Below are positions 1,173-49,702 of a DNA stretch of 64,000 nt, one piece after another. Origin of the DNA: Squalus acanthias. Its lineage: Eukaryota. The DNA lies in contig JASTWF010000033.1 of NCBI GenBank assembly GCA_030390025.1, positions 3,102,001 through 3,166,000 of the forward strand. Direction: 5' to 3'. Below the pieces are notes generated by a model that saw nothing but the letters and a program-made list of their open reading frames with translations, had not been told where the DNA came from and searched no databases. Positions within the stretch are counted from its first letter, which is position 1, and each line of letters starts with the position of its first letter. The translations under genes were made by a program, and so were the position numbers.

Positions 1173-3117
1173 GAACATAAGAACTTAAGAAATAGTAGCA
1201 GGAGTAGGCCATTAGGCCCTTCGAGCCTGCTCCAGCATTCAATGAGATCATGGCTGATCTTCTGCTTAAACTCCATTCACCGTCCCTATCGCCATATCCC
1301 CTGATGCCCTTACGAGTCAGAAATATATCGACTTCTGTTTTGAATATACCCAATGACTGAGCCTCTTCAGCCCTCTGGGGTAGAGAATTCAAAAGATTCA
1401 TGACCCTCTGTGTGAAGAAATTTCTTCTCATCTCAGTCCTGAATGGCCTACCCTTTATCCTGAGGCTGTGGTCCCTGGTTATAGACTCCACAACCAAGGG
1501 AAACATTCTCCTAGCATCCACCCTATCAAGCGCTGTAATAATTTTGTACGCTTCAATGAGATCCCCTCTCATACTTCTGAATTCAAGAGAATACAGGACT
1601 AGTTTATTCAATCTCTTCTCATACAACAGTCCCGCCATCCCAGGAATCAACCTCGTGAACCTTCGGTGCACTCCCTCTATGGCAAGTTTATCCTTCATTA
1701 GGTAAGGAGACCAAAATTGTGCACAGTACTCCAGGTGTGGTCTCACCAAGGCTCGATATAATTGGAGTAAGACTCTTTACTCCTGTACTCAAATCCTCTT
1801 CTAATGAGGGTCAGCATACCATTTGCCTTCCTAATAGCTTGCTGTACCTGCACATTCACTTTCAGTGACTCAGGTACAAGGAAACGCAGGATCCTTTGAG
1901 CATCTGCATTCCCCAATCTTTCACCATTTAGGAAATACTCTTCCTTTTTTTTCTACCAAAGTGGATAACTTCACATTATCCACATTATATTCCATCTGCC
2001 ATGTTCTCGCTCACTCACTGAGCCTGTCGAGATCCCCTTGAAGCCTCTTCACATCCTCTTCACAACTGACACGGACACCTCGCTTTGTATCATCAGCAAA
2101 TTTGGAAATGTTACATTTAGTTCCCTCATCCAAATCATTGATACAGATTGTGAATAGCTGGGGCCCAATCAGCGACCCTTGCGTTACCCCACTAGTCACA
2201 ACCTGCCATCCTGAAAAAGACCCGTTAGTCCCTACTCTTTGTTATCTGTCTGTTAACCAATTCTCAATCCATGCTAGTATATTACCCCAATTCCATGTGC
2301 CTTAATTTTGTTCACCAACCTCTTGTGTGGGACCTTATCGAAGGCCTTCTGAAAATCCAAAAACACCACATCTACCGGTTCACCTTTGTCGACTTCACTA
2401 GTTACATCCTCAAAGAACTCTAATAGGTTTGGTAAACAGTATTTCTCTTTCATAATTCCATGTTGACTCTACCCAATCTTACTATTAGTTTCTAAGTGCC
2501 CAGTTATCCTTTATAATAGATTCCAACATATTCCCAACTACTGATATGAGGCTAGCAGGTCTGTAGTTCTCCATTTTCTCTCTCCCTCCTTTCTTAAATA
2601 GCGGGGTTACATTTGCTATCCTCCAATCTGCAGGAACCGTTGCAGAATCGATAGAATTTTGGAAGATGATAACCAATGCGTCCAATATCCCAATGACCAC
2701 CTCTTTCAAAAACCCTAGGATGTAGGTCATCCGGTCCTTGGGATTTATGGGCTTTTAGTTCCATTAATTTTGCTAGTACTGTTTTTGTTACTAATAATAA
2801 TTTCTTTAAGTTCGTCATTCTCGTCACACCCTTGGTTTTCTTGTATTTCTGGGAGGTTTTTTGTTTATTCCTCCGTGAAGACATTAACAAAGTATTTATT
2901 TAATTTCTCTGCTATTTCCTCATTCCCCATTATAAATTCTCCCGTCTCTGACTGTAAAGGACCTACATTTACCTTCGCCAGTCTTTGCCTTTTCACATAC
3001 CTGTAGAAGCTTTTACAATCCGTTTTTATATTTTTCACTAGTTTGTGCTAATATTCCATTTTCCCTTTCTTTATCAATTTCTTATCCGATTTCTAAAAAG
3101 ATCCCAATCCTCAGGCT
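1173..3117 (-). mobile_element. 5'-truncated, decayed CR1 LINE (RT and 3' end)
   Basis: Minus ORFs with [47 protein letters not shown]; short microsatellite tail at ~1173. Confidence 0.92.
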
Positions 3118-4019
3118 GACCGGGAGAGAGAGACACAGACAGAGATACAGACAGACCAGAGGTGGAGATGATGGGGAGGAATCAGACGGGCTGAGACAGA
3201 CAGACAGATAGACAGAAGTGGAAAATTGAGCGAGAAAGACAGATAGGGTTACTGAGAGAAACATCGAGGTGAGACATAATTAGCAGACAAAAAATAACAG
3301 ACCGAATTGAGACAGCGACAGAGACATTGGGGGAGAAAAGCGGCAGGAGACAGACAGGGAACCCAGACTGGGGAGACAGACAGGGAACACAGACTGGGGA
3401 GACAGACTGGGGAAACAATCTGGGGTGACAGTGTGAGAGAGACATCGGGGGAGAAAGTGCGAGACACAGATCATGGGGAGAAGGATGGGGATAGAGAGAG
3501 AGAAGGAGAGAGATGCGGGCAGATAAACGGTGAGGAGACATACAGGGGAGACATAGGGGTAAGACAGCGAGATAAGGACAGACGCGGAGACGAGAGAGAG
3601 ATTGAGATGGGCAGAGAAGACATATGGGACAGAAGGGGGAGAGAGAATCGGGAGGCAGGATGGGGGATGACAGAGAGAGACAGACTGTGGAAACAGAGAG
3701 AGAGAGGGGGTGAGGAGTGAGAGACGGGGAGCCAGCCGTGGTGTGACAGACAGGGCATATGAGCAGTGAGGCAGACGGGAAGACAAAGCATCAGTATTAG
3801 TCGGGGGAGACAGAGGTGATTACACAGAGCGAGAGAAAAAGAAGCGGGTTCAGACAAATGGGGAGAGACAGACTGGGGCAGACAGAGAGAGTGAGATCTA
3901 TTATGGGAGATAGGACTAGGGGGGCAAACAGACTGAAGAGAAGTTAGACTGATGGAGACAGACTGGATGAGATAGATGGTCGGTGACAAAGAAAGAGACA
4001 GAAAGAGAATAGATGGAGT

Positions 4020-4699
4020 TGAGACAGAGGGAGAGAGACAGACAGAGTGTGAGACAGAGAGAGGGACAGGCCGGGTGAAATCAATGCGGGAGAGACAGAG
4101 AGAGGGACAGACAGAGAGTGAGACAGAGAGAGGGACAGACTGGGTGAATTCAATGCGGGAGAGACAGAGAGAGAGAGACAGACAGAGTGTGAGACAGAGA
4201 GAGAGAGAGACAGAGAGAGGGACAGGCTGGGTGAGATCAATGCGGGAGAGACAGAGAGAGAGAGACAGACAGAGTGTGAGACAGAGAGAGAGAGAGAGAC
4301 AGACAGAGTGTGAGACAGAGAGAGGGACAGACTGGGTGAAATCAATGTTGGAGCGACATAGAGAGAGAGACAGCCAGAGTGTGAGACAGAGAGAGGGTCA
4401 GGCTGGGTGAAATCAATGCGGGAGAGACAGAGAGAGATGCAGACAGAGTGTGGGTCAGAGAGAGGGATAGGCTGGGTGAAATCAATACGGGAGAGACAGA
4501 GAGAGAGATACGGGGAGAGAGTGAGATAGAGAGATAGACAGACAGAGTGTGAGACAGAGAGAGAGAGACAGACAGAGTGTGAGAAAGAGAGAGAGAGACA
4601 GACAGAGTGTGAGACAGAGAGAGGGACAGGCTGGGTGAAATCAATACGGGAGAGGCAGAGAGAGAGAGACGGGGAGAGAGTGAGACAGAGAGCGAGACA
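4020..4699. repeat. GA-rich satellite with core GGACAGGCTGGGTGAAATCAATGCGGGAGAGACAG (left block)
   Basis: Repeated core separated by variable (GA)n; the same array resumes at 13828. Confidence 0.9.
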
Positions 4700-7039
4700 T
4701 GCAATTCGTGTACGGAATACCTGGTCATTTGGTCCCGCCGTGGATACACCTCCGCGGACGGGCGACCTTTAACGGTGAAGCCCTTGCTGGAAAAGATCCT
4801 AGCAGCAGTAGGGGAGGAAGGGGAGATTTTCATCCATAAGGTGAAGGCTCACTCCTCCACAGAGCCCCGTGGGTAGGGCAACCAGCAGGCAGATGCGCTA
4901 GCCAGGGAGGGTGACCGTAACGGTATTTTCTGGGACCCCTATGGGCCCGGACCCGTGGCAGCGATCCAAGGTACGGCCGTGAACCCCGGGAACACCAGGG
5001 TAGCACTGCCACTAGACCTTAAGGCCGTCCAGAACCAGGATCTCGCCCTAAAAGCAGTTTGCAGAACCATTGCTGAGGGCAAGCAGGTGGAGGGTCCGTA
5101 CAGTACGGCAACCCTCTCCGTCAAAGAAGGCATGCTGTTCCGCGAGGAGCAGTGGGTTGTGCCGCAGCAGCACAGGAGGGAATTCCTCCAGTTGGCTCAT
5201 GAGGTGCCGGGGGCAGGGCACCCCGGGCCCGAGGTTACCTGGCAACTGGTAGAGCAGGCGGGATGGTGGCCGGGACTCAGGGAGCAGGTCCGCGAGTTCT
5301 GTGCAAGCTGTCTCGTGTGCGCTGCAAACAACCCAGAACCCCAGAAAAGGAAAGTGCCCATGGGGCACATCAGGAGGGTGGAGGGACCATGGCAGTCGAT
5401 ACAGATCGATTACATAGGGCCCCTGCCCACCACCCAGGGAGGCTACAAATACTGCCTCGTATTGGTGGATGTGTTTTCCAAATGGGTGGAAGCTTTCCCC
5501 TGTAAAACAGCTACGGCACTGGGTACTGCAAAGATCTTGGTCCGGGAAGTGTTCTCGCGGTGGGGACTCCCCCGTTTCGTGCAGTCAGACCAAGGGAGTC
5601 ATTTCACCGGCCAGGTGATGCAGAACACCCTCATGCTTTTGGGCATTGAAGAGAAGTGGCACGTAGCGCACAATCCCCAGTCATCCCGGATTGTTGAACG
5701 CATGAACCGGACCCTGAAGGAGAAATTGAAGAAAGAGACTATGAACTCGCCCCAAAATTGGGCCGAGGTTCTGCCTCTAGTCCTCATGGGGATCCGGGCC
5801 AGTCAGTCGAAAAGTACGGGGTATTCCCCGCACGAGGTGATGACTGGGAGGATCATGCGAAACCCCACCCATGTGCTAGCGCCGGTGCTCACTGAAGTGC
5901 AGCTCCAAGAGGTGAAAAGGGACAAGTTCGTCCAGACCCTCTTGGATCGCCTGAAGCAGGTTTATGAGCAGGCGGCTGGGAACATGGGAAGGCTGCACCA
6001 GGGCAATCGCCTGTTGCTGGAGCACCGCAAGAAGCAGGAGTGGGAAGTGGGAGACCAGGTCATGGTCAGAAACTATGCCAGAGTAGGGAGTCTGGAACCA
6101 CTGTATATGGGGCCCTACAGTATTGTAGATAAGGCGAGTCCCATGGTATACGCCGTAAAGGTACCTCGGCGCACCAAGTGGTTCCACGTAAATCAGTGCA
6201 AACTGTATAAGCCAGGTGCACAAGGGCCAACCACAGGGGCAAAAACTGCGCGTGGGGACACGCAGCCCCGGGTAGGGCCGCAGGGCACGCAGGCTGGCAA
6301 AGCAGCTTGCATCAGGGGAGAGGACATCCTAGCAAAATGTAGGATCCTTTATTGGGGTTGGGAGTCAAATGAGGAAGAGTTAGAGGAACTCGACCAAGAT
6401 AGTGACCCGAGCGAAGAGGAGCTGGGATCGGAGGACGAAAGGGTCGCTCCCGATTCAAGTAAAGGAAAGTTAGGGACTGCAGATGGAGGCCCATACAGGG
6501 TGGAAGCAGAAGCTGCAGGTCCCGAACTCAGGGGGGCGGAGCTAGGGGAGGCGGAGCCAGCGGCTGTGGTGGGACCACAGGACGTGGCGATGGAAGTCTC
6601 AGAACCCAGTCCGTCCGCCTTGGAAGTCTTGCCCTCGGGGGAGGTAGGGACTGCGAGTGAAGGGCCGCCTACTGGGCCAAGTAGGGCGGTGCCAGAGACT
6701 GCAGATCCCGAGTTCAGGGAGGCGGAGCCAGGGGAGGCGGAGCCAGCGGCTGTGGTGTGACCACAGGTCGCAACGGCGGAAGTCTCGAAACCCGGTCCGT
6801 CGGTCCTGGAGTTCTTGCCCCCGGTAGGCCCCCGTAGGTCAAGTCGGACACCCCAGCCCAGGAAGGTATGGTCAAGTCCCCAGAGTTTCCCAAGGCGTAG
6901 ATTCAAGGCTAAGGCAGCCCAGGGAGAGCCCAATCACAGCGCAGCAGCAACAGGCTGCGGCAGATCAAAGGGGGGAGGGGGGTCAGCGCCCTCCCACCGT
7001 TGCGAAAATCTTGTGGCCACCTTCACAGAATTTGAATAG
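4700..7039 (+). pseudogene. pol: pol 3' part: RNase H C-terminal half plus integrase with long C-terminal extension
   Basis: One frame from 4700: EYLVIWSRRGYTSADGRP..HKVKAHS..GNQQADALA (RNase H); HHCC; IDY/SDQG/IVER with D-35-E spacing; LYMGPYSIV..FHVNQCK (GPY/F); in-frame stops at 4874 and 6758. Confidence 0.93.
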
Positions 7040-7269
7040 GCCGCCCTGGGAACGGGCGGCGCTGTACAGTTGTATAAGATAAGTTAGAAGTTTTATAGTT
7101 TGTAAGTTTGTAAGTTTTATAGTTTTATTTTGATAACTAAAAGATAAATGATGGGAGTTTAGATAAGGTTTAGTTCAAGATCTATCCAGTGCACATGTCT
7201 TTTTACGTGAGGCGAGTTCAGGGGACCCGCTCACACTTCACCAAAAGCCAGAGACTCTTGGGAGGCTGG

Positions 7270-7293
7270 CTACATCATTTTATCTGATCACAG
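7270..7293 (+). promoter_or_regulatory. Putative env splice acceptor of provirus 1
   Basis: Pyrimidine-rich tract then CAG (7291-7293), 13 nt before the env ATG; same spacing in provirus 2. Confidence 0.6.
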
Positions 7294-7306
7294 GAACCAA
7301 GGAAGG

Positions 7307-10300
7307 ATGGAACGAATTCTGGTAGTGCTCGCGTCAATCAGATGAGGATTGGCCTATCGAGGCCGCACCAAGGATGCCGTGGTGTTTGGATGCTCCGGGG
7401 ACACTGCCCCCATCGCGGTGGATGGGACCGGGAGGCGAGAGGCTTAGGAGACCGCCATTTATTTCCACAAGGGAAGGTGCCCAGGATGGCTGGGAACGAA
7501 TTCAACTGAATATTCCAGTACATCGGGATTTGCCTACAAGGAGACTTCTTTAATGTGCCCCAAAGTGAGGATCATCGCACCCAGAGTCAGCGTCACCGTC
7601 GGCAAACGGATTTGTTTGACTTGTAATGGGAATGTCCCATTGAGCCGATGGTGGTAGCTACGAAAGCTGAGCAGAAATATGAGGAATTCTTCGGTCGAGT
7701 GGGAGCGACTGGATAATAATACCCATTGGACAATTACGGGGACTAACGGACAATTGAAAGTCTGTTGGGACAAATGGTGGGAACCGGATGAGGGAATTTA
7801 TTTATGTATGTGGGGGTCAAAGCACGTTTGCCCCAAAGGCATCTCCATATTTTTCGTGAATAAGTGGCAGGATTATGGGAAAGGGATGAGGTGCGATGCT
7901 AGCACCAGGGGGTGCGGAGCCCCATACTCTCCGATCCCGGTAAACGCCACTGAACTCATTACGTGCCCACGCAAGGCCCCACCCACGATTCCGCTGGTTT
8001 TGGCTCAGGAAGAAGGGTGCCCTAAAACCAGTAAGGGACCCGGGAATGGTTTGGTACTGGTCCCTACAGACCAGATACTATTTCAGGGGGTACATTACGC
8101 GGTGGCCTCGGTGATTTTAAACCTCACCGAGGTGCGGTTGCCAAAGTGGTGCCCCAAAGAGACGTAACAATTGTGCCAGGTCCTGTTGACCAATATGTTT
8201 AGACAATTTTATGAATTCGATTTTCGGAGATTGATTAAACACGTTTGTACACAGCACCACATGAAGTTTGGGGCCAGGTGGGGAGACAAAGAAGGGGTGT
8301 TGTGAACGATATGTTCACTGCGTTAAATACAGGGACGTCTGTGGTCAACACTCCAGGTAACGTGGAGTTGCAGACCCAGATTAATGGTTTAAAAACCCAA
8401 TTAAAGAATATCCTCACAGACGAAAATAAGGTGGTAGGGTCTGGGTTACATGAGGACCAGGCCATGATGCTCCACTTAAAAGAAATTATAGCTGAGCTGG
8501 AGAAACATGCGCGTACGGTAAATGCCCTGATCAGGGAAGATTGGAATGCGTCCGATCAGGCTGCGCGGAATGAGATGTGCGTGCTTTATGGGGCGTGGTT
8601 ACTGGGCGAGGGCCGCAGTAATTTGGAGGATTTAAAACAAGGTTTGGTCCCGTCCTGGATAAGTAACAAACACCTGCAGGCGCTCCACCCTTTTCAGAAC
8701 GCATTAAGCCCGTGCCAGCTCAGGCTAGCTTCAGAAGCATACCCAGTCTCCGTGGACTGCGGACGATCAAACCATAACATTATGGGTATACATAGAAACA
8801 TAGAAACATAGAAGATAGGAGCAGGAGTAGGCCATTCGGCACCTAGAGCCTGCTCCGCCATTCGATGAGATCATGGCTGATCATCTAAACTCAGTACCCT
8901 GTACCTGCCTTCTCCCCATATACCTTGATACCTTTAGTTTTAAGAAATATATCTAACTCATCCTTGAATATATTTAATGACTTCGCCTCAACTACCTTCT
9001 GTGGTAGAGAATTCCACAGGTTCACCACTCTCTGGGTGAAGAAATTCTTCCTCATTTAAGTCCGAAATGGTTTACCCGTTATCCGTAGATTATGACCCCT
9101 GGTTCTGGACTCTCCGACCATCGGGAACATTCTTCCTGCATCTAGTTTGTCCAGACCTGTCAGAATGTTATATGTTTCGATGAGATCCCCTCTCATTCTT
9201 CTATACTCCAGTAAGTATAAGCCCAATCGAACCAATCTCTCCTCATATGTCATTCCTGCCATCCCAGGTATCAGCCTTGTGAATCTTCGCTGAACTCCTT
9301 CCATGGCAAGAACATCCTTCCTCAGATAAGGCGACCAAAACTGCACACAGTACTCAAGGTGTGGTCTCACCAAGTCCCTGTACAACTGCAGCAGGACATC
9401 CCTGTTCCTATACTCAAAACCTTTCGCTATGAAGGCCAACATACCATTTGCCTTCTTCACCGCCAGCTGCACCTGCATGCTTACTTTCAGCGACTGGTGC
9501 ACAAGGACACCCAGGTCTCGTTGCACTTCCCCTTCTCCCAATCTATTGCCATTCAGATAATAGTCTGCCTTTCTGTTTTTGACACCAAAGTGGATAACCT
9601 CGCACTTATCCACGTTATATTGCATCTGTCACGCTTCTGCCCACTCACCCAACCTGTCCAGATCATCCTGGAGTTTCTCGCTATCCTCCTCGCTGCACAC
9701 ACTCCCACCCAGCTTTGTGTCATCTGCAAACTTGGAGATATTACATTTAATTACCTTATCTAGATCATTAATGTATATTGTGAATAGCTGGGGTCCAAGG
9801 ACCGATCCCTGCGGTACCCCACTAGTCACTGCTTGCCACTCGGAAAAAGACCCATTAATTCCTACTCTCTGCTTTCTGTCCGCCAACCAGTTCTCTATCC
9901 AAGTCAATACCTTGCCCCCAATCCCATGTGCCTTAACTTTACCCGCTAATCTCTTATGCGGGACCTTATCGAAAGCCTTTTGAAAGTCCAAATACACCAC
10001 ATCTACTGGTTCTCCCTTATCTATTTTCCCAGTTACATCCTCAAAAAATTCCAGTAGATTAGTCAAGCACGATTTACCTTTTGTAAATCCATGTTGACTT
10101 TGTCCGATCCTGTCACTGTTTTTCAAATGCTCAGCTATTACATCCTTTATAATGGACTCTTGCATTTTCCCCACTACCGATGTCAGTCTTACCGGTCTAT
10201 AATTCCCCGCTTTCTCTCTACCACCCTTTTTGAATAGTGGGGTAACATTAGCTACCCTCCAATCCATGGGTACAGTTCCAGATTCCATCGAATGTTGGAA

Positions 10301-11760
10301 GATAATCAGCAATGCATCTACTATTTCTAGGGCCACTTCCTTAATTACCCTAGGATGTAGATTATCAGGCGCTGGAGATTTATCGGCCTTCAATACCGTC
10401 AATTTCCCTAACACCATTTCCCTGCAAATACTGATTTATTTCAGTTCCTCCCTTTCATCAGACCGTATGTTCTCCAACATCTCTGGGAGGTTATTTGTGT
10501 CCTCCTTTGTGAAGACAGAACCAAAATATGCATTTAATTGGGCTGCCATTTCTTTGTTCCCCATTATAACTTCCCCCGCTTCTGACTGCAAGGGACCTAC
10601 ACTTGATTTCACTAATCTTTTTCTCTTCACATATCTATAAAAGCTCTTACAGTAAGTTTTTATGTTCCCAGCAAGCTTACTTTCATATTCTATTTTCCCC
10701 TTCTTAATTAATCCCTTTGTCCTCCTTTGTTGAATCCTAAACTGCTCCCAATCCTCAGGGCTACCGCTTTTTCTGTCCAATTTATATGCCCTCTGCTTGG
10801 ATCTTATGCTGTCCCTAATTTCCCTTGTTAGCCACGGTTGAGTCACCCTTTTTGTTTTATTCTTATGCCACACTGGGATGTACACATTCTGTAGTTTTAG
10901 GTATGCCGGTTTTGGGCGACACAGCAAAGCCCACCCCGGTGTATCGGGTAGAGAACATTGGTCTCATTCAGGGGGGAGCCCACATTCGCTACGCAGCGGT
11001 CCCACCTTACGTCATCCGCTGGGAGCAAACGATGACAGGTACAGATCTCTCTGGTTGTCGTGGCAGGGTAGCACACGTAATCCTGTGTCACCAGCACTTG
11101 AATGCCTTTTTATCACCACAGTGCAGGTTCAGAACGGCTGGCGCCAAGCCCATGAATTGCACCATGGAGGCATTGGCACAAGATCATGTGCCTCCGCAGG
11201 TGGCATACATAGGGGGTGGAACATATTGTGTTACCACTGCAGCGCAACACTACCAGCATGGAAACCGTAGCTGGTGTCCGGTGAGTGTCAGCAGTTTCAG
11301 TTTTAAACCCAGGGCTGAAGTTCAAGTGGCACAGCAGCGAATTGTCCAGATCCCTGAACCATCCACTGTTCATCTAACTGTGAAGGAGAATTTTACCGAC
11401 TTGCAGCGATTCGTCGCTCATTTCGGATACCTCATTCCCCCTCTCCCTGAACACCTCACCAAACTTTTGAAAGCCGTTGCGGTTTCGCAGAAACATTTTT
11501 ATACCCTTGAGCAAAAGACTGTCTGGATTGGGTCAGAGATCCTAGACATAGTGATTCCACCGTGGTGGGATGTGTTCCCCAACATTGAAGTGCCTTCCTG
11601 GATTAGAATAGCCTCCCACATTTTAGTTGTATGCCAGGTCATAATTGTTGTATACCTGTTGGTCGTGCACTGCAAGAGGGGCAAGCGCCTCACCAAACAG
11701 GAAAACACAGGAGAGTGGCGAGAGCATTACGTGCGCGTGCACGAAGAAAGCGCTGCGTAA
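7307..11760 (+). pseudogene. env: env of provirus 1 (signal peptide, Ig-like domain, RQRR furin site, F-like fusogen, TM), split by a CR1 insertion
   Basis: ATG 7307 MERILVVLAS; DEGIYLC; RQRR at 8284-8295 then GVVNDMFTALNTG and a heptad repeat; resumes in frame at 10894; TM ILVVCQVIIVVYLLVV; several stops and a frameshift near 8225. Confidence 0.9.
8791..10893 (-). mobile_element. 5'-truncated CR1 LINE inserted in env
   Basis: (CATAGAAA)n tail at 8791; RT ORFs with [26 protein letters not shown]. Confidence 0.96.
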
Positions 11761-12195
11761 ACGGCCAGAGTGGCGCCACTCCGCTTTTTTCCATGTGTGT
11801 CTCATAATTCTGTATTGATTGTTATTTTTCTTAGAACCTGTAACTAAGTTTGGAACTCTGTATTTTAAGAGTTGTTTTGATTATATTTAATTTTTTGTTG
11901 TTGAAAATGGTTGTTTGATTGCTTTGTTGTTCTTTTCCTTGAATAATAAAAAAACATGCATATACAGGTGGTGCAAGAGGCATCGGCCTGTTACACCTGG
12001 AAGACAGACACGCGGTGTAAGTTAAAGGCAAATGCTGCCTACGGTTTTATAAAAAATGTAATTTTTCCCTGGGAAATAAGGACGGCACGGAGACCCTAGA
12101 TAGTTTAAGTTAAGGGAGTATTTGGATATGGAGAATCGAGATAATGTTGCTCACCACCACTTTTAATTGATACGATAAACGGAGTTATTCGCATC

Positions 12196-12207
12196 AACAG
12201 GAGGGAC
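12196..12207 (+). promoter_or_regulatory. Polypurine tract of provirus 1
   Basis: AACAGGAGGGAC immediately before the LTR start TGTAG. Confidence 0.7.
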
Positions 12208-13827
12208 TGTAGAATTCGCAAAATATCGCGAGTTCGAAATAACGAGATAGAGACATACAGTTTTGTATAAACAGCTTTATTTCAGCAAAATGCTGTCATG
12301 TTTCAAAACGGAGACAAGCAGCCTGTAAAATGGCCGCCACGCCTCGTGGCAGAAGGTTATAGACTTTCAGTGGGCAGACAAGATGGCGTTTCAATAAACA
12401 TTTCAGCAAGATCGGACAGTACTCAGCATATTGATATAAGACAAGACGCGATCGTTTTGCATTTTTAACACCGAAGCAAGAAATATATGTGCTGGAATCG
12501 GTTTTCCATGCACAAACGAGGGCTATTGTACTGGGTAATCAAGGGCCCATCCAAAGACATTGATACGCAAATTCCCCGCGGCTCTACGATGAGAGAGCCA
12601 TTCGCGGGTACTAACAGCAAGAATTCGGAGGCCCCCAAAACTCCTCCAGGGAGACTCCCTAGCCGGTTCCACAATGGGAGAAATATTAACGGGTACTCAG
12701 ACAGTTACAAGTATCACCGATACCCATTAACGACAAGAACCAACCCGTACAAGAAGTTTGAGCGCCAAAAACATGACAAAAGATGAACATTAAGATTAGG
12801 CGGGAGATAAGGAATTACAGTACTATAACTGTAGTGTCCAAATGTCCATCTTTCTCTTATCCCTGACGACTCTTGACTCTTATTCTCTGATCCGCTGATC
12901 CTTCTGGGGTCGACCTCGTGGCTTGCCACGACGATCTGTGGAGAGCTGGTCTGCGAAGGCCTGCAAACGGGCACACCATCCCCAGAGGTCGGTAAACGGA
13001 GTTGCATCCGAAGGCCCGAGAGGAGATGAGATGAGATGAGATGAGAAGAGAAGAAGAAGACTACACGTGCCGCCGCGGTCAGTAAGCCCCGACCGCGCCC
13101 GAAAATCGATTAATCACTTCTTTGAATTTTATCGGCTACTCCACAACTGGCACCAGAAGACTCTTCTTCGAGTTTTACCGAACCGGTGTCGGCACAGGAA
13201 GACTCTTCTTTGAATTTTATCAGGAGTCCGTGGTCATCACAGATGTTCATGACAGCAGACGGTCCAGCCTGCTAGCCGGAGCAGAGCAAGTAAACAAGTG
13301 GGGTCCAGAGACCCCTGATCAACACGTGAATAGTCAGGTGTTGTGGCGAAAACATCCGAGCATCGTTTTAGAATTCTCCGAGTTATCACGAGTGGTGAGC
13401 ATGACGCTCGATCCTACAGATCTAGATTAGGACAGGAATTAATAGGGGAGGGTTTTCGTTTTAAGGATAATTATAATGTGTGTCCCCTTTTAAGATGTGT
13501 CGTGCGCTGCTCGTTTCCCTAAACCTAGTTTCATAAATGTATGTATGCTTTTACTGTCATTAATCTGTGCTGATGACATGTATTTCGTAATCTTGAACAA
13601 CATGCAATAAAGATTTTCCATTTCGTACTATTCAAACGGGTCTACCTGAGTTTTCTCTGCATTATTGCTCTCGCACCTAAGTCCAGTGTCAGAACCGTAA
13701 GGGCGAGTGCGTCGAACCACTCAAAGGTGTCTCGTGTTACCAGGCCGGCTGGAAACCAGAACAGGCAACGAGGCCTAACCCCGCACTAGCACCCAGGCTA
13801 AGCACAGAGCCATCCGAACCCCTTACA
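12208..13827 (+). repeat. 3' LTR of provirus 1 (1620 bp)
   Basis: Starts TGTAGAATTCGCAAAAT, ends CCCCTTACA; AATAAA at 13606-13611; termini match the provirus 2 LTR. Confidence 0.85.
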
Positions 13828-15050
13828 AGAAAGAGAGAGGGACAGGCTGGGTGAAATCAATGCGGGAGAGACAGAGAGAGAGAGACAGACAGAGTGTGAG
13901 ACAGAGAGAGGGACAGGCTGGGTGAAATCAATGCGGGAGAGATAGAGAGAGAGAGACAGACAGAGTGTGAGACAGAGAGAGAGACAGACAGAGTGTGAGA
14001 CAGAGAGAGGGACAGACTGGGTGAAATCAATGCTGGAGCGAAAGAGAGAGAGAGACAGACAGAGTGTGAGACAGAGAGAGGGACAGGCTGGGTGAAATCA
14101 ATGCGGGAGAGACAGAGAGAGAGACAGACAGAGTGTGGGTCAGAGAGAGGGATAGGCTGGGTGAAATCAATACTGGAGAGACAGAGAGAGAGAGACGGGG
14201 AGAGAATGAGACAGAGAGAGAGACAGACAGAGTGTGAGACAGAGAGAGAGACAGACAGAGTGTGAGACAGAGAGAGAGAGACAGATAGAGTGTGAGACAG
14301 AGAGAGGGACAGGCTGGTTGAAATCAATACGGGAGAGACAGAGAGAGAGAGACGGGGAGAGAGTGAGACAGAGAGAGAGACAGACAGAGTGTGAGACGGC
14401 GAGAGAGACAGACAGAGTGTGAGACAGAGAGAGAGAGAGAGACAGACAGAGTGTGGGTCAGAGAGAGAGACAGACAGAGTGTTGGTCAGAGAGAGGGACA
14501 GGCTGGGTGTGAGACAGAGAGAGGGACAGACAGAGTGTGAGACAGAGAGAGGGACAGGCTGGGTGAAATCAATGCGGGAGAGACAGAGATAGAGAGACAG
14601 ACATAGTGTGGGTCAGAGAGAGGAACAGGCTGGGTGAAATCAATGCGGGAGAGACAGAGAGAGAGAGACAGACAGAGTGTGAGACAGAGAGAGAGAGACA
14701 GACAGAGTGTGAGACAGAGAGAGGGACAGGCTGGGTGAAATCAATGCGGGAGAGAAAGAGAGAGAGACAGACAGAATGTGAGACAGAGAGAGGGACAGGC
14801 TGGGTGAAATCAATGCGGGAGAGACAGAGAGAGATACCGACACAGTGTGAGACAGAGAGAGGGAAAGGCTGGGTGAAATCAATGCCGGAGAGACAGAGAG
14901 AGAGAGACAGACAGAGTGTGAGACAGAGAGAGGGACAGGCTGGGTGAAATCAATGCGGGAGAGACAGAGAGAGAGAGACAGACAGAGTGTGAGACAGAGA
15001 GAGGGACAGGCTGAGAAAAATCAATGCGGGAGAGACAGAGAGAGAGAGAG
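13828..15050. repeat. GA-rich satellite (right block); low-complexity GA-rich DNA continues to ~16070
   Basis: Same core as 4020-4699. Confidence 0.9.
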
Positions 15051-16072
15051 AAGGGGAGACAGTGAGAGATACAGATGGGGGAGACAGACAGGGAGGCAGA
15101 GAGCGTGAGACTCTTGGGAGCGACAGACTGGGGAGATAGAGCGAGAGAAAGATCGGTGGAAAAAGGATGGGGGGAGAGACTGATGGAGACAGACGGGGCA
15201 GAAAGAAAGAAAGAAAGACAGACGGGAGTGCAAGACAGTGGTGGGAAGGGTGGGCGAGAGAGAGAGAGAGATAGATGGGGGAGAGAGCAAGAGTGAGAGA
15301 TGCGGAGACTAACGTTGGGAGACAGAGAGAGAGACACTTGGATTGAGACAGAGAGAGACACAGACGACGGGGGGTCACAGAGACAGACAGAATGGGAGAC
15401 CGAGAGGGAGTTAGTTGGGTGGGACATGATGTTGAGACTGGCGGGGGAGGAGAAGGACGAGAGGGAGCGACGCAGGAGATTGACGCGGGAGAGACAGAGG
15501 GAGACAGAGAGCAGCAGGGGACATTGATGTGGAGCAGTTTAGACAGGATGGGACAAGAGAGAAACAGGCGGGATTGGTGGGGAGAAAGAGCGAGATCGAC
15601 AGACAGGCAGTCAGAGAGAGAGAAAGCCAGGGGAGAAAGAGGGGTTGAGGAAGAGAGAGACAGACAGACAGAAAGACAGACAGGGTGAGATAGACACGGG
15701 AGAGACAGAGACAGAATGAGACAGATTGGGAGACAGACGGCAGGAGGCAGACGGAGGAAATATATGGTGGAGAAAGCGCGAGAGACAGAAATTGGTAGAA
15801 GGGCGGCGGGGATGGGTTCGGTGCGAGAGCCATGCAGACAGACGCAGGGAGATAGCTGGTGAGGAGAAAGACAGCGGAGACTGATGGGGTGAGAAACAGA
15901 GAGAGGTACAGACGCAGGGAGATAGATGGGTAGGAGAAAGACAGGCGAGATGGATGGGCTGAGACACAGAGAGAGGGACAGACGCGGTGAGAAAGAAACA
16001 GTGAGATGGACGGGGGAATTAGACAGCTCGTGACAGACCGGAGAGTTAGCAAGGGGAGGCAAGATGGAGGAA

Positions 16073-17455
16073 GTTTTATTTAATTTATTCATTCACGGTG
16101 TGTGAGCTTCGCTGGAAAATGCCCATCCCTAATTGCCCTTGAGAAGGTGTTGGTGAGCCGCTTTCTTGAACCGCTGCAGTCCGTGTGTTGAAGGTGCTCC
16201 CACATGCTGTAAGGCAGTAATTTCCAGGATTTTGAAACAGCGACGATGAAGGCACGGCGATACATTTCCAGTCGGAAAGGTGTGTTGACATGGAGGGGAA
16301 CTTGGAGGAGGTGGTACTTCCACTCACCCGCTAACCCTTGTCCTTCTAGGTAGTAGAGGTCGCGGGTTTGGGAGGTGCTGCCGAAGAAGCCTTGGCGAGT
16401 TGCTGCAGTGTATCTTGGAGATGGTACACACTGCAGCCACGGTACGTCGGTGATTGAGGTTGTAAATACTTAAGGTGATGGGTGGGTTGCCAATCAAGCG
16501 GGCTGCTTTGTACTGGATGCTGTCGAGCTTCTTGAGTGTTGTTGGAGCTGCACTCATCCAGGCAAGTGAAGAATATTCCATCACACTCCTTACTTGTGCC
16601 TTGTAGATGATAGAAAGACTTTGGGGAGTCAGGAGATGAGACACTCGCCGCAGAATACCTAGCCTCTGACCTGCTCTTGTTGCCACAATATTTATGTGTC
16701 TGGTCCAGTTAAGTTTCTGGTTAATGGTGACCCCCAGGATGTTGATGGTGTGGGAATCGGCGATGGAAATGCCGTTGAATATCAAGGGGCGGTGGTTAGA
16801 CTCTCGCGTGTTGAAGATAGTCATTGCCTGGCACTTGTGTGTTACCTACCACTTATCATCCCAAGCCTGAATGTCGTCTTGTTAGATGCGGGCATGGACT
16901 GCTTCATTATCTGAGGAGTTGCGAATGCAACTGAACACTGTGCAGTCATCAGTGAACATCCCCATTACTGTCTTTATGTTGGAGGGAAGGTCATTGATGA
17001 AGCAGCTGAAGATGGTTTGGCCTAGGGCACTGCCCTAAGGAACTCCTGCAGCGATTTCCTGGGGTTGTGATGATTGAGCTCCAACCACGACAACCACTTT
17101 CTTTGTGCGATGTGTGATACCAGCCAGTGGAGCGTTTTACCCCGGATTCCCATTGACTTCAGTTTTACGAGGGCTCCTTGATGCCACACTCGGTCAAATA
17201 CTGCCTTGACGTCAAGGGCTGTCACTCTCAGCTCAATCTGGAATTCAGCTCCTTTGTCCATGTTTGGACCAAGGCTGTAATGAGATCGGGAACCGAGTGA
17301 TCCTGACGGAACCCAAACTGGGTATCAGTTAGCAGGTTATTGGTGAGTAAGTGCCGCCTGATAGCACTATCGCCGACGTCTTCCATCACTTTGCTGATGA
17401 TTGAGAGTAGACTGATGGGGCGCTAATTTGCCGGATTGCAATTGTCCTGCTTTAG
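16073..17455 (-). mobile_element. Non-LTR retrotransposon 3' part (second CR1/L2-group family)
   Basis: ALDVKAVFDRVWH and YKAQVRSVMEYSSLAW RT/thumb motifs; A-rich tail at ~16073. Confidence 0.8.
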
Positions 17456-19350
17456 GTGGATTGGAGGCTGTATTAGTTTGAGGGGCTGTGTTAGTGTGAG
17501 GGGCTGTATTATTTTGAGGGGTAAAATCAGCTTGAGGAGCATTATGAGTTTGAGGAGCTGTATTAATTTATGATGGTGTAGTAGTTTGAGGTGCTGTATT
17601 AGATTGAGGGGCTTTATTAGATTTAGGGTCTGTATTAGTTTGAGGGGCTGTATTAGTTTGAGGTACTGTATTAGGTTGAGGGTGTGTATTAGTTTGAGGT
17701 GCTGGATTAGATTGAGAGGATGCATTAGTTTGAGCTACTTCATTAGTGTCAGGGAGTGTATTAGTTTGAGGAGCTGTATTAGTTTGATGGACTGTATTAG
17801 TTTGAGGTACTGTATTAATTTGAGGAGCCTTGTTAGTTTTAGGTACTGTATTACTTTAAGGGGATGTATTAATTTGAGGTACTGTATTAGTTTGAGGTAC
17901 TGTATTACTTTGAGTGGTGGTATTAGTTTGAGGTACCGTATTACTTTGAGGGGATGTATTAATTTGATGTACTCTATTAGTTTGAGGGGCTGTATTAGTT
18001 TGAGGTACTGTATTAGTTTGAGGGGGTGCATTAGTTTGAGGAGCTGTATTAGTTTGAGTGGCTGTATTAGTTTGAGGTACTGTATTAGTTTGAGGTGCTG
18101 TATTAGTTTTGAGGTACTGTATTAGTTTGACATACAGTATTAGTTTCAGGGGCTGTATTATTTTGAGGTGCTGTATTAGTTTGAGGTGCTGTATTAGTTT
18201 GAGGTACTGTATTAGTTTGAGGTGTTGTATTAATTTGAGGGGCTGTATTAGTTTGAGGTGCTGTATTAGTTTGAGGTACAGTATTAGTTTGAGGGGCTGT
18301 ATTATTTTGAGGTGCTGTATTAGTTTGAGGTGCTGTATTATTTTGAGGTGCTGTATTAGTTTGAGGGGCTGTATTATTTTGAGGTGCTGTATTAGTTTGA
18401 GGTGCTGTATTAGTTTGAGGTGCTTTATTAGTTTGAGGTACTGTATTAGTTTGAGGTGTTGTATTAGTTTGAGGGGCTGTATTAGTTTGAGGGGCTGTAT
18501 TAGTTTGAGGTGTTGTATTAATTTGAGGGGCTGTATTAGTTTGAGGTGCTGTATTAGTTTGAGGTGCTGTATTAGTTTGAGGTGCTGTATTAGTTTGAGG
18601 GGCTGTATTAGTTTGAGGTGCTGTATTAGTTTGAGGTACAGTATTAGTTTGAGGGGCTGTATTATTTTGAGGTGCTGTATTAGTTTGAGGTGCTGTATTA
18701 TTTTGAGGTGCTGTATTAGTTTGAGGGGCTGTATTATTTTGAGGTGCTGTATTAGTTTGAGGTGCTGTATTAGTTTGAGGTGCTTTATTAGTTTGAGGTA
18801 CTGTATTAGTTTGAGGTGTTGTATTAGTTTGAGGGGCTGTATTAGTTTGAGGGGCTGTATTAGTTTGAGGTGCTGTATTAGTTTGAGGTACTGTATTAGT
18901 TTGAGGTGTTGTATTAGTTTGAGGGGCTGTATTAGTTTGAGGGGCTGTATTAGTTTGAGGTGCTGTATTAGTTTGAGGGGCTGTATTAGTTTGAGGGGCT
19001 GTATTAGTTTGAGGGGCTGTATTATTTTGAGGTGCTGTATTAGTTTGAGGTGTTGTATTAGTTTGAGGGGCTGTATTAGTTTGAGGGGCTGTATTAGTTT
19101 GAGGTGCTGTGTTAGTTTGAGGTGCTGTATTAGTTTGAGGTGCTGTATTAGCTTGAGGTACTGTATTAGTTTGAGGTGCTGTATTAGTTTGAGGGGCTGT
19201 ATTAGTTTGAGGGGGTGTATTATTTTGAGGTGCTGTATTGTTTTGAGTGGCTGCTTCAGTTTGGTTATTTTTATTAGAGGTAGTTTATTAATTGGAGAAT
19301 GTATGTAGAGTTGATGGGCTGTATTAGTGAGGGGCTGTATTAGTTTGAGG
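17456..19350. repeat. 18-bp minisatellite (TGTATTAGTTTGAGGKGC)n
   Basis: Direct periodicity, about 100 units. Confidence 0.97.
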
Positions 19351-19446
19351 ATCGATCGATATTAATTCCCCACTTTAATTTGTTAACTGAATGGACACAT
19401 TTAAATAGGGCAACCACATCACAGAGTACAACAGACCAGCCCTGAG

Positions 19447-23600: not shown

Positions 23601-24693
23601 AGTTGTTTGATGAAAATATTCAATTGTTATTTGACAGAGTTTAATTCCGCACCACACCAATCTCTCTATCTTATTCAGGCTCTGAATCCGCATCTAGAGT
23701 TTCATGCTTCACCTATTGTCCCACAACATGTGTGAGATCCTCCTTCTGAGGTCGGAACTGTGCTCCAGATGTCCATTAATGTTTCTGGACATGTCCGTAC
23801 GCCTCTCCTCGGCGAGATTTCAGTAAACCACGAGCTGGCCTCAAAATCACAGCGGGCGGGATATGGTTTGACATCCCGGGGATGGGGGTGGTTTGTGCGA
23901 TCCTGGGGTTGGTTCCAATCCCCGAATACGGGAGGGGATGCCCTAGCCCGGGAGAGTAGACCCCGGACCGGGGGAAGGTACGATCCCCGAACCCGGGGGG
24001 TGCAGATTCCGGGGGGAGGAATTTCCTGAACAGGAGGGGTTGTCCAATTGTGGGCGTTGTCAGTTGGATCTGAACCCCGACACCGGCGGGGAGATGTTCG
24101 ATCCCAAAATGTATTTAATCCCGTGTGTGGTGACCGATCCTGGATGGGTTTCTGATCCGGGGGGCGGGGTCCTATCCTCGACAGATGGATTCCAATCTCC
24201 GACTCTTGTATCTTTTTATGGGGGTGGGCTCCACGGGGAGGGGAGATTGGGAGGCCGGGAGGAAACACTCCTGCTCCTCCTGGTCTACACGCAGTGTGTG
24301 AATGCATTGAAACTCTCCCTGACGCTGTCCTCGCCTCTCCTCAGCTGCTGGGATTCCCGAGGACTGGAAAACCAGGCCGGCCACTGTTAATCCAGTAAAA
24401 CAAGTTAAATCAGAGGCTGCTAGCCTCATTAAAATAATTAAATTTCCAACTCGTAGCACTGTAGCCCCCCTCCTCCCTCCAACCTCCCCCGCCACCGTCT
24501 CGTCTCCGTTACACTCGGCAGTGGGCAGGTTGGAGACAAGTTGGGTTTATGATGAGATTTTTAAAATATTAATCTCTGACCCGACCCTAACACAACAGAT
24601 TTGGGGAGCTAAAATCCAGCTCTTACTGTATGGGCTCAGACACGGAGAATGTTTGATCAGTAATTTCCAGTCTCATTTCCCTTTTTTTTACAG

Positions 24694-25598
24694 TTAATTT
24701 AGTGGCGATTGTGATCCTGTCCCGGGGAAAGTGCGGACTTTCCACTTGCACCACTCGCTACCTGGTTGCCATGGCAGCGGCGGATCTACTGGTCCTTATC
24801 TTTGAGGTCATACTGAGGCGGGTCAGCTGGTATTATTTCCCGTACACTATCCTGGAAATCACCCCTGTGTGTAGTGTTACCCTTGTCCTGACTGCGGCAG
24901 CCGTACATTGTTCTGTCTGGTTCACCGTTACTTTCACCTTTGATCGATTTGTGGCCATTTGCTGCCAAAAGCTGAAAAAAAAATATTGCACCGGGAAAAC
25001 AGCAGCTGTGGTTCTAGCAACAAGTTGCATTCTGCTCTGTTTAAAAAACGTCCCTTTCTACTTTACACGCGCCCCTGGCATGATACTTGACAATGTGCCG
25101 TGGTTCTGTGATATCAAGCCAAGCTACTACACTGAGCCAGGATGGGTGGTATATGACTGGTTTGATACGGTTTTAACCCCATTGCTCCCATTCGCTTTAA
25201 TTTTGTTGCTCAACGCTCTGACAGTCAGACACATTTTAGTGGCCAGTCGCGTCCGTAAGGGACTGAGGGGTGAGAGCAAGGGTGAGAATGACAGTGACCC
25301 AGAGATGGAGAGCAGAAGGAAGTCTGTGATTTTACTCTTCACCATAACCGGCAGCTTCATACTTCTGTGGTTGGTAAATGTTATAAATTTCTTTTATTAT
25401 AGCATTGTAGGAATAGATAATTACACTGATTCTTTAAATTTATTTCAGCAAGTCGCAATTATGCTGCGGAGTTTAAGTTGCTGCACAAACACATTTATTT
25501 ATGGGGTGACCCAGTCCAAGTTCAGAGAGCAGTTGAAGAGCGCGGTGAAATATCCGGTCACCTCAATTATTCAATTAATTCAGAATCAGAACAACTGA
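24694..25598 (+). CDS. GPR139/142-like class A GPCR, coding exon 2 (full protein 323 aa)
   Basis: Polypyrimidine tract then CAG at 24691-24693; open frame with AAADLL (TM2), TFDRFVAICC (DRY-like), LLPF (TM5), CCTNTFIY (NPxxY variant); 67+905=972 nt. Confidence 0.9.
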
Positions 25599-34339: not shown

Positions 34340-34650
34340 GAAAACATGTGTAATTCTGATCAATCTCGAGTATCCCCAAGTTATCTTTTCCCTCAGTCCC
34401 CACAAATGACGATCCATTGTCACAATCAACTGTTCGAGGGATCTCCCGCCGATTAAAGACGTCATAAACAAGTATAGTCGCGGTAGTTTCAGCCGTTTGA
34501 TGCGGGCAGGAAAAGCCTCTGCCCACCGTGAGAATACATCGACAGCAACCGAAAGATATTCCCCACCCCGAGCGGTAGCAGACAAGTGCCCGTATAATCA
34601 ATCCTGTATAATCAAACTTTGTTCCTGTGGGCCTTCTTTTTCACAAGCGA
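34340..34650 (-). pseudogene. Old retroviral-type integrase core fragment
   Basis: Frameshifted IDYTG..YLSVAVDVFSRWAEAFP..TAETTATILVYDVF..DCDNGSSF. Confidence 0.85.
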
Positions 34651-42842: not shown

Positions 42843-43075
42843 CAGACAGCTTGATTGGGCCCCAATACCAAAAGCTGTCCACTGCCTGGCCACGCCCCTC
42901 CGCAGCCTGTCTGCGTCTGTGAAAGTTGTCTTTCCCCACAATAAGATTCAAAAAGTCATTTTCCTCGGGGTTTTTCTTCCTTGATCTTTAAAAATGTCCA
43001 AAACTGAGGTTTTTACTTCAAATCACTTCACTTAGGGTTCTGTTCGAGTTTCTGGGGGATTTTGCGAAGCCTACA
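42843..43075 (-). repeat. Partial LTR (U3 start) of the provirus 2 family
   Basis: Homologous to ~44193-44437; terminus TGTAGGCTTCGCAAAAT at 43075; no adjacent PPT. Confidence 0.88.
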
Positions 43076-44437: not shown

Positions 44438-44751
44438 TCCCCCACTTTGATACTATAACTGAATTAGTATCATTAACAGGTGAGCAAAATTTCCGGTCCC
44501 CGAAAACCAACCTTCCCCTGTATTACCTAAACTAAAAACCCAAACATTCATTCCTCTTTTGAAAGTGGTGTTTCAGGTACATACAGGTAAGAATCAATCT
44601 TTATTTCACATCCAAGCACGGAGAGGGTCCGACACCCCTGCACAGCTTTTAAAAAACACATCATACACATCATAAAAGTGACACAACACATATACAACAT
44701 TTTTTATTAAACGACAAAATTCAAGGTTCGTTCCATTCCTGGCCATAGCCT

Positions 44752-49199: not shown

Positions 49200-49702
49200 G
49201 GAACGCCAGTGGCTGTAGCTACCTTCCCTGTGCAATCAAACAGGACTCTGATGGCCGCTACTATTTTGTCCTGTGTGGGGGAAGAGGTCGGTGCCTCTAC
49301 TTTTGGGGCAGGAGTTGGGGACTTCTTTGCTAGGCTATCCTTCCAGGGATTCCTGCACTCCTTTCTCCAGTGCCCAGTCTTCCCGCACCCGAAGCAGCTA
49401 CGCTTCGTGTTGGAGGGTTTACCACCTTACTGGTGCCGCTCATTCTTTTCCTGACTGGGCTTTATCGCATGCACCTTCCCTTTCGGTGGGGTGTCTTCAG
49501 CTCCCCTACCGTTCCGGTAGGCTAGGGTCAGTTGCATGGTCACTGCCTCCACGGTGACCCGGGGTTCTTTCGGGTCAAACAAAAGCTCAGCCTTGGTTTT
49601 TATTCGTGTCAAGCTGTTTGCCACTAGGCTATAGCCAGTGGGCCAGCTCGTCCCTGTTCAGGTTAGCCCTTTCGAGAGCCCCATTACAAGTACCCTTGTA
49701 CA
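49200..49702 (-). pseudogene. gag: gag 3' part with a CCHC zinc knuckle
   Basis: CFGCGKTGHWRKEC (CX2CX4HX4C) at ~49355-49396, not called in the ORF track; in-frame stop at 49427-49429. Confidence 0.88.

Follow-up and report, generated by a model that had tools for sequence, protein, structure and literature searches.

Introduction

Lokiretroviruses, foamy viruses with their endogenous relatives, and epsilonretroviruses are the described systems closest to the retrovirus family examined here, two proviruses of which lie in a 64,000-nucleotide stretch of DNA from the shark Squalus acanthias (the window: assembly GCA_030390025.1, contig JASTWF010000033.1, positions 3,102,001 to 3,166,000 of the forward strand). 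Lokiretroviruses are presented, in the available text of Wang & Han (2020, PMC7947760), with the layout long terminal repeat (LTR)-gag-pol-env, a tether plus RNase H in Pol, an RxKR-type cleavage site in the envelope (Env) and an Env that resembles the fusion (F) protein; the same text leaves undecided whether the F-like env was ancestral or captured. The hosts listed there belong to five vertebrate classes without Chondrichthyes, and six chondrichthyan genomes appear in the available supplement as screened, none of them starred as positive.

For foamy-like endogenous retroviruses (FLERVs), the available part of one report has the frog element XtrFLERV clustering with the shark elements CmiFLERV, with no gene beyond pol detected in either (Aiewsakun & Katzourakis 2017, PMC5512871); a catshark element, 'ERV-Spuma.0-Sca', is described in the text at hand with three open reading frames (ORFs) and no recognised Gag or Env domain (2023, PMC10699275), and endogenous foamy viruses of cartilaginous fish are the subject of a 2023 paper in J Virol, as cited in the available portion of PMC11468914. 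The Env of foamy viruses is itself F-like by cryo-electron microscopy, as given in that portion (PMC11468914; Fernandez et al. 2024, PDB 8RM0/8RM1). One published study left the epsilonretrovirus Env outside the beta/gamma classification, its surface subunit being one that could not be modelled; no statement that epsilon Env is F-like was found in the literature searched.

An initial annotation of the window, made from its letters, had proposed a loki-like lineage with an F-protein-type envelope. Phylogenetic analysis contradicts the first part of that proposal, and structure prediction supports the second. The family is a retrovirus with a foamy/F-like envelope that is not a lokiretrovirus and probably not a true foamy virus. 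In full, the account we consider likely is that of a high-copy LTR-gag-pol-env retrovirus whose reverse transcriptase (RT) and integrase (IN) belong with those of foamy viruses and orthoretroviruses, not with those of published lokiretroviruses. For its Env, the prediction is a class I fusion protein that is cleaved by furin and folds like paramyxovirus F and foamy Env.

Results

RT and IN set the family apart from lokiretroviruses

A tree of RT plus tether (59 rows, rooted on 14 Gypsy rows) was built by a quick IQ-TREE run, with support from the Shimodaira-Hasegawa-like approximate likelihood ratio test (SH-aLRT). Reference retroviruses were IMG/VR records named by their Pfam matches (Spuma_A9PTase, MLVIN_C, TLV_coat, Cyclin_N): six foamy viruses (Spuma_A9PTase at 1e-63 or better), two deltaretroviruses, two gammaretroviruses and three records with an MLVIN_C-type integrase. 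One of the last three, 12,708 nt long, carries a cyclin-like ORF (Cyclin_N) and is, by its length and gene layout, what we take to be walleye dermal sarcoma virus. The loki label was assigned from strings of the Loki-Bsp and Loki-Lch proteins (Pol and IN) that the supplement of PMC7947760 prints; the comparison covered 15 of its 24 consensus sequences, the four amphibian ones not being among them.

The RT and IN strings of Loki-Bsp and Loki-Lch (IIRECNSTYNSPIWPVLKPTGKWRLTIDYRPLNK...) match teleost proteins and not those of shark, frog or Latimeria. Eight proteins with the published motifs form a loki-type clade with support 100. Its sister (SH-aLRT 99) is a clade of 37 rows that holds foamy viruses, a group of shark, Xenopus, other frog and Latimeria sequences (93), and a class I/epsilon/gamma/delta group (92). 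Joining the shark-frog group with the lokiretroviruses costs 35.7 log-likelihood units (approximately unbiased (AU) test, P=7.2e-5). The IN tree agrees: a loki clade (99) leaves out the shark family, which falls in a 35-row clade (86) together with foamy and class I integrases, and the Loki-Lch IN string is without counterpart in the shark IN (CGIN1/NYNRIN were not included in this tree). Strings from shark and frog RT gave no match in the 15 loki consensus sequences covered, in which a control string, ANGFWTM, matched five times. Gypsy elements are set apart from the retrovirus clade in both trees – 14 rows by branches of 98-99 for RT, 13 rows by a branch of 97 for IN – and an identity as Ty3/Gypsy is rejected by both.

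The RT tree, the AU test and the IN tree therefore show that the family is not loki-like by pol. The initial annotation was right that cartilaginous fishes were not among the loki hosts first listed, which is immaterial because the element is not a loki. Judged by its pol sequence, the family branches deeply within the clade formed by foamy viruses and orthoretroviruses: its RT lies within the 37-row clade that contains Spumaretrovirinae and Orthoretrovirinae (alpha-, beta- and lentiviruses not being sampled), and the layout is LTR-gag-pol-env. As evidence against a loki-like lineage the initial annotation had named an RT grouping within spuma or epsilon elements, or within Gypsy; the RT is indeed inside a clade containing both spuma and epsilon viruses, but it is nested in neither, and it stands apart from Gypsy.

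Intact Pol (1419 aa) has the order protease (PR), RT, tether (a degenerate Ty3-type RNase H), RNase H, IN. Pfam gives a weak protease match followed by RVT_1 (3.9e-34), RT_RNaseH_2 (7.7e-20), RNase_H (4.1e-20), Integrase_H2C2 (1.1e-17) and rve (6.3e-16). The tether and second RNase H for which the initial annotation had suggested looking are thus present, but they do not discriminate, because the same pair is common to the foamy, MLV-type (gamma) and epsilon-type records, which likewise match RT_RNaseH_2. In a sequence search of PDB, Pol is colinear over RT, tether and RNase H with the RT of murine leukaemia virus (MLV; 2.4e-61) and with a foamy virus PR-RT (5e-56); a Ty3 Gag-Pol chain is nominally the top match (6.2e-62), about equal to MLV, and the best integrase match is prototype foamy virus (PFV) IN (2e-32). 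The closest named Pol relatives (40-43% identity) are from frogs (Rhinophrynus, Pyxicephalus, Aquarana, Xenopus) and Latimeria; next comes a group of teleost proteins at about 33%.

The envelope is predicted to have an F-type fold

Intact Env, counted from the methionine of the signal peptide, is 783-784 aa long; cleavage follows residue 330 and a predicted membrane helix begins at about 729, leaving about 400 aa between them. These values bear out the initial annotation, which had read an Env of about 780 codons with RQRR and about 400 aa from cleavage site to membrane; its remark that no CX6CC motif is visible also holds, in an eight-sequence Env alignment. The fusion subunit is predicted to start with a weakly hydrophobic N-terminus. 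Pfam finds nothing significant in Env, and no match to Foamy_virus_ENV (PF03408). Weak Ig-like signals (Ig_3, E 0.007-0.13) occur in the N-terminal module, and a Chiloscyllium homologue is named 'Ig-like domain-containing protein' in UniRef.

With HMMER run in full against 1.84 billion representative sequences, 56 Env relatives were found at E <= 1e-3. Ten named clusters among them include sharks (Mustelus, Chiloscyllium, Scyliorhinus, Heterodontus) and frogs (Pelodytes, Mantella with 16 cluster members, Bombina, Xenopus tropicalis), so that the shark-frog pairing is found for Env as for Pol. The closest proteins, at 58-79% identity, are from Pristiophorus, Rhinoraja and Scyliorhinus, which points to an elasmobranch as the probable host, and word-indexed protein searches returned elasmobranch proteins only. 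The long frog proteins and the Mustelus and Chiloscyllium relatives align only from about residue 226; Env residues 1 to about 225 are therefore without counterpart in them. In the ESM Atlas a single unnamed cluster from chordates scored 0.84, which is no more than a lead. IMG/VR yielded no relative to the Env profile, and plain hmmsearch none among the ORFs of the gamma and epsilon records.

Some of the relatives are parts of chimeric gene models. In a Heterodontus francisci model, 'fbxo15 isoform X3', an F-box protein is joined to the C-terminal portion of the family Env, and this Env portion has a weak Baculo_F match (E 0.0011, profile positions 463-585 of 609). Comparable models containing env occur in Pristiophorus (Niban 1-like, cadherin-related 5-like).

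Structure was predicted with AlphaFold2 for the monomer from a 56-row alignment; an earlier run with eight sequences gave a predicted local distance difference test (pLDDT) value of 31 and was unusable. Mean pLDDT is 61, with residues 236-310 and 420-650 at 77-95. Foldseek against PDB returned 229 matches at E <= 1e-3, the best 50 of which are all F proteins of paramyxo- or pneumoviruses; the top one is F of human parainfluenza virus 3 (1ztm_C, E 1.4e-10). The model has the core fold of domains I-III, and the linear features stand in the order known from F: strands ahead of the cleavage site, the site itself, heptad repeat 1 (HR1), the beta-rich domains, heptad repeat 2 (HR2) and the membrane anchor. 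The foamy Env entries 8RM0 and 8RM1 are not among the best 50 matches of Foldseek or VIA-align, which does not exclude a likeness. The prediction supports an Env fold of the paramyxo/pneumovirus F type, as the initial annotation had suggested. The shark Env differs from those F proteins in sequence (7-14% identity), in having some 225 additional residues as a module at its N-terminus, and in being borne by a retrovirus with no separate attachment protein.

Profile comparison links Env to epsilon and foamy envelopes

Two records of exogenous-type fish retroviruses in IMG/VR, of 12,708 and 10,688 nt, encode Envs of 1229 aa (5962-9648) and 1134 aa (6131-9532) that belong to no Pfam family. The shark-frog Env profile aligns to these epsilon-type Envs with a probability of 97.8% (hhalign, E 6.8e-13) over 350 columns that span the strand region before the cleavage site, the cleavage site, HR1 and the beta-rich domains; the link is visible by hhalign only. 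Against ten foamy virus Envs the probability is 86.4% (E 4.7e-6); the 205 aligned columns belong to the fusion subunit and cover the central beta-rich region up to HR2. A control comparison with seven gamma-type Envs reached only 5%. The shark-frog Env is linked by profile to epsilon and foamy Env, and by its predicted fold to paramyxovirus F. Since it is homologous by profile (97.8%) to an Env of predicted F-like fold, the epsilonretrovirus Env may also belong to the F-like class.

Several observations count against the account given so far. Both trees are quick IQ-TREE runs with SH-aLRT as their only support, and the group compared in the AU test was chosen with the tree already in view. Published FLERVs, the amphibian loki consensus sequences, ERV-L/class III elements and alpha-, beta- and lentiviruses are not among the references. 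The tree leaves the 37-row clade as a three-way split and places the shark-frog group closer neither to foamy viruses nor to class I. For Env, the monomer model is of moderate confidence, with residues 1-235, 313-350 and 651-682 mostly poor. Among 12 Env sequences and fragments searched at E <= 10, the fusion glycoprotein family PF00523 was matched once only, below threshold (E 0.24, 10.1 bits against a cut-off of 29.8), by the 3' fragment of env in one of the window proviruses (copy 1). Env sequences and profiles gave no meaningful match to PDB chains, and epsilon-type and foamy Envs compared directly by hhalign show no signal (0.1%), with two sequences on one side of that comparison.

Alternative identities of the family

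Of the other identities, that of a foamy-like endogenous retrovirus (ERV) – spuma-like, class III in the wide sense, belonging to the CmiFLERV/XtrFLERV lineage or to the endogenous foamy viruses of cartilaginous fish, with an env that is a divergent foamy Env – is plausible, if short of probable. The shark family groups with proteins of Xenopus tropicalis and other frogs much as XtrFLERV pairs with CmiFLERV in the available part of PMC5512871, and the catshark element ERV-Spuma.0-Sca is published, in the text at hand, with three ORFs (PMC10699275). Hosts among cartilaginous fish and frogs, a deep pol lineage near foamy viruses and the shark-frog pairing are common to these elements and ours, and the family is probably of the XtrFLERV/CmiFLERV lineage as described in print, which the shark-frog grouping fits; they differ in that the available accounts give pol only or no recognisable Env, whereas here env is defined, its fold predicted and its links to other Env families drawn. 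The Env profile match to foamy Env (86%) and PFV IN as best PDB integrase match point the same way, and foamy Env (8RM0/8RM1, in the available portion of PMC11468914) likewise has a long fusion subunit of F-like fold, matched by profile from the beta-rich region to HR2. Neither tree, however, resolves a sister relation to foamy viruses, the Env match to epsilon-type Env is the stronger one, and the shark Env is without a Foamy_virus_ENV match. Spuma_A9PTase and SH3_11, both strong in all six foamy records, are not matched by the intact Pol. The family Gag carries a CCHC knuckle; foamy Gag, to our knowledge, has none. In the full-length copy the gap between env and the 3' LTR measures only about 290 nt, so there is no room for bel-like genes. 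The CCHC knuckle, the lack of foamy-specific Pfam matches and the short gap argue against membership of the true spumaviruses. An epsilon-like (class I) ERV with an Env homologous to that of walleye-type epsilonretroviruses would account for the strongest profile match and for the single CCHC knuckle in Gag, which the 12,708-nt and 10,688-nt records share. It is nevertheless improbable: in the RT tree the shark-frog group falls outside the class I/epsilon/gamma/delta group (92); MLVIN_C, present in the class I pol of the epsilon records, reaches 16.6 bits against a cut-off of 29.2 in one window copy and is not among the Pfam matches listed for intact Pol; and the PDB score to MLV RT is 211 bits for the shark Pol against 428 for a true class I fish ERV. 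The epsilon-type Envs, at 1134-1229 aa, are also of another length.

Membership in the lokiretroviruses, a sister lineage of Retroviridae that would then extend to cartilaginous fish, is very improbable. It shares with our family the F-like Env fold reported for loki Env in the available text of PMC7947760, and in the same text Xenopus tropicalis, Rana catesbeiana and Latimeria are among the species marked positive for lokiretroviruses, while the closest relatives of the shark Pol are from frogs and the coelacanth. The Env motif GPGNGLVLVP...VILNL resembles, by eye only, the loki Env start PGPxSGIVL...VFVRL (supplement of PMC7947760). The dual RNase H of the shark Pol is common to all retroviruses, and the RT branches of 99 and 100, the AU test and the IN tree all separate the two. 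The IN text of the coelacanth element Loki-Lch agrees with the loki clade of teleosts, not with those Latimeria proteins that lie near the shark family, and the shark RT motifs are absent from the 15 of 24 loki consensus sequences covered. The envelopes differ as well, with about 115 aa before the cleavage site in loki Env against 330 aa in the shark Env, and the shark family has no PF00523 sequence match at threshold and no smc gene that was seen. Still more remote, to the point of being hardly credible, is a Ty3/Gypsy retrotransposon with a captured F-type env, in the manner of an errantivirus. The nominal PDB rank of the Ty3 chain and the weak Baculo_F match in one chimeric protein derived from shark env would fit it, but RT and IN lie inside the retrovirus clade, and a second, retroviral-type RNase H follows the tether. 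What the evidence favours is a deep retroviral lineage, by pol within the clade of foamy viruses and orthoretroviruses, with an envelope of predicted F-like fold.

The family is abundant in the genome and retains open frames

Family copies were sought in the 3.7-Gb assembly, and all counts are lower bounds. There are at least 100 matches to env (A-type query, 83-100% identity to copy 2 of the window), at least 111 to RT (91-100% identity) and at least 127 to the 3' part of env of copy 1 (B-type query, 90-100% identity). With at least 100 env and 111 RT matches, the features of the element are far beyond chance. The genome holds hundreds of copies, many with open env frames: the matched stretch is stop-free in 120 of the 127 B-type env matches listed, and by hand count 53 of those 127 fall in frames that run for 783 codons or more without a stop.

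Full-length relatives of 11.2 kb with LTRs of 1.1 kb, whose recovery the initial annotation had proposed, were found in the same genome, and in them env and pol are linked (LTR-gag-pol-env-LTR). One such copy, 11,162 bp long, comprises gag, a pol open over 1419 codons, and env between LTRs of 1120 nt with 98.4% identity to each other; its Gag, like that of the family generally, has one CCHC knuckle. The LTR pairs of two further copies are 97.8% and 97.7% identical. The age that this implies depends on the substitution rate: a few million years at mammalian rates, against tens of millions at the slow rate for sharks assumed by Han (in the available text of PMC4422223). Two of the first three copies examined have lost pol entirely but keep gag and an open env (808-832 codons), and non-autonomous gag-env derivatives therefore exist. 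In one further copy the integrase and the start of env share a single 960-codon open frame, and env is split by a 4.2-kb insertion.

Two defective copies in the window represent two subfamilies

The two window copies are 72-77% identical in DNA and about 70% identical in Env: the family comprises two subfamilies, of which copy 1 represents B and copy 2 represents A. Positions are given in the table below.

The initial annotation had placed copy 1 at 4700-13827, with RNase H directly before an HHCC-DDE integrase; Pfam and tblastn agree, with slightly wider bounds. Residues 715-1259 of intact Pol align to 4697-6322 by tblastn. The 5' end is cut inside RNase H, abutting a GA/CT-rich tandem repeat, and the RNase_H match in the ORF there (4613-4876) is weak (E 0.017). 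The integrase frame matches Integrase_H2C2 (6.7e-17), rve (4.1e-16) and SH3_Tf2-1 (1.7e-5), and weakly MLVIN_C (E 0.0064). The 5' part of env comprises the signal peptide, N-terminal module, F2-like strand region, RQRR (codons at 8284-8295; LEDLKQGLVPSWIS is also present) and HR1; residues 1-333 are read in frame 2 and 306-495 in frame 1, env being broken by a frame change near 8221-8302 plus stops, and the ORFs covering this part are 7658-8167 and 8239-8811. A fragment of a non-LTR retrotransposon (long interspersed element, LINE) of about 2.1 kb then interrupts env, so that blastn to the full-length B copy stops at 8790 and resumes at 10892; the beta-rich domains, HR2, membrane anchor and tail lie beyond it. 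The LINE, the frameshift and the stops are absent from the initial annotation.

In copy 2 the Gag has the CCHC zinc knuckle that the initial annotation had reported (CFGCGKTGHWRKEC, at 49396-49355 in the translation). A deletion joins this gag straight to pol, removing PR, RT and tether together with a portion of RNase H (positions 2911-5269 of the reference, by blastn), and the remaining pol segments run in frames -3, -2, -1 and -3 (tblastn). RT is accordingly missing from both copies, as had been noted: truncation within RNase H removed it from copy 1, and the internal deletion from copy 2. The reading frame of env in copy 2 changes twice and is also closed by a stop codon at 45463-45465, where the ORFs 45463-46725 and 44752-45462 adjoin.

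Positions of the features of the two proviruses in the window, and predicted layout of the intact Env (residues)
Feature	Position	Strand	Remarks
Copy 1, subfamily B provirus	4697-13832	+	5'-truncated, 3' LTR kept; both copies in the window dead
Copy 1 retroviral-type RNase H, C-terminal part	4697-4876	+	blastn to full-length B copy begins at 4697
Copy 1 integrase (HHCC, DDE core, SH3-like C-terminal domain) and Pol tail	4877-6760	+	single 627-codon open frame
Copy 1 env 5' part, Env residues 1-495	7307-8790	+	tblastn with intact Env B
Non-LTR (LINE) retrotransposon fragment inside copy 1 env	8791-10887	-	RVT_1 7.2e-28, ORF 9629-10435
Copy 1 env 3' part, Env residues 494-783	10888-11757	+	tblastn 93% identity to intact Env B; ORF 10819-11760
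Copy 1 3' LTR	12208-13832	+	blastn 88.5% over 1649 nt to 5' LTR region of full-length B copy
Copy 2, subfamily A provirus	49704-43245	-	internally deleted
Copy 2 gag 3' end	49201-49704	-	blastn 92.7% to positions 2405-2910 of full-length A copy; upstream sequence missing
Copy 2 pol remnant: RNase H end, integrase, tail	47268-49200	-	at least 4 frame segments
Copy 2 env, residues 1-783	44727-47062	-	tblastn frames -1, -2, -3; 88-91% identity to intact Env A
Copy 2 3' LTR	43245-44437	-	blastn 84-88% to both LTRs of full-length A copy
Env signal peptide, predicted	residues 1-16		
Env extra N-terminal module, predicted			about 225 aa
Env F2-like strand region, predicted	from about residue 240		
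Env cleavage site, predicted	residues 327-330		RQRR
Env HR1 helix, predicted	residues 349-444		
Env beta-rich domains, predicted	residues 477-645		
Env HR2, predicted	residues 680-712		
Env membrane helix, predicted	from about residue 729		followed by a short tail

Surroundings of the proviruses

A GA/CT-rich tandem repeat (about 3200-4700 and 13857-15500), translating as SLSLS.../RERER..., lies on both sides of copy 1; because one and the same repeat flanks it, this copy sits in a satellite-like array. One full-length copy elsewhere in the genome is also inside a tandem array, which matches itself at offsets in multiples of 16 bases. Two other long tandem arrays in the window have open frames in several phases, one at 17574-19361 with units of CISLR type and one at 52843-54740 with units of 25 residues (PTDGHVCVTYRRPCLCHLQTAMFVS). 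Further LINE-like fragments, judged by eye from translations, lie at 16324-16845, 27453-27974, 35878-36522, 41970-42947 and 59858-60316, and resemble the LINE within copy 1 in its RT and C-terminal part. There is a weak, unrelated integrase-like match at 34350-34576. The sole ordinary host gene seen in the window is an intronless receptor of the rhodopsin family at 24657-25598 (+), with an intact 313-codon frame (7tm_1, 1.2e-22).

Discussion

If the predicted structure is right, Env would form a trimer and would be cleaved by furin at RQRR, the extra N-terminal module serving as the putative receptor-binding part. After receptor binding HR1 would extend and HR2 would pack back against it, and the resulting six-helix bundle would drive fusion in the way of F and foamy Env. 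The many copies with an open env make it likely that the family spread by germ-line reinfection. It also gave rise to the pol-deleted gag-env derivatives.

For the classification of such elements, the consequence is that an F-like Env alone does not make an element a lokiretrovirus, and a misfiling is thereby corrected. The shark-frog pol lineage, for which the available portions of the published accounts gave pol only or no recognisable Env domain, is probably now supplied with an env. An F-like Env inside the retrovirus crown also bears on the question, undecided for loki env, of ancestral origin versus capture, and the class of F-like envelopes among retroviruses would grow wider through the profile homology to epsilonretrovirus Env, which has been without a class.

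A broader possibility, which we put forward tentatively and regard as rather doubtful, is that the F-like envelope is the ancestral retroviral envelope, inherited by lokiretroviruses, foamy viruses, epsilonretroviruses and the shark-frog lineage, and that gamma- and beta-type envelopes are later replacements. Were this so, the shark Env would be the missing sequence bridge between these envelopes: an F-type fusogen carrying its own Ig-like receptor-binding head. The origin of the retroviral envelope would then become testable with real sequences.

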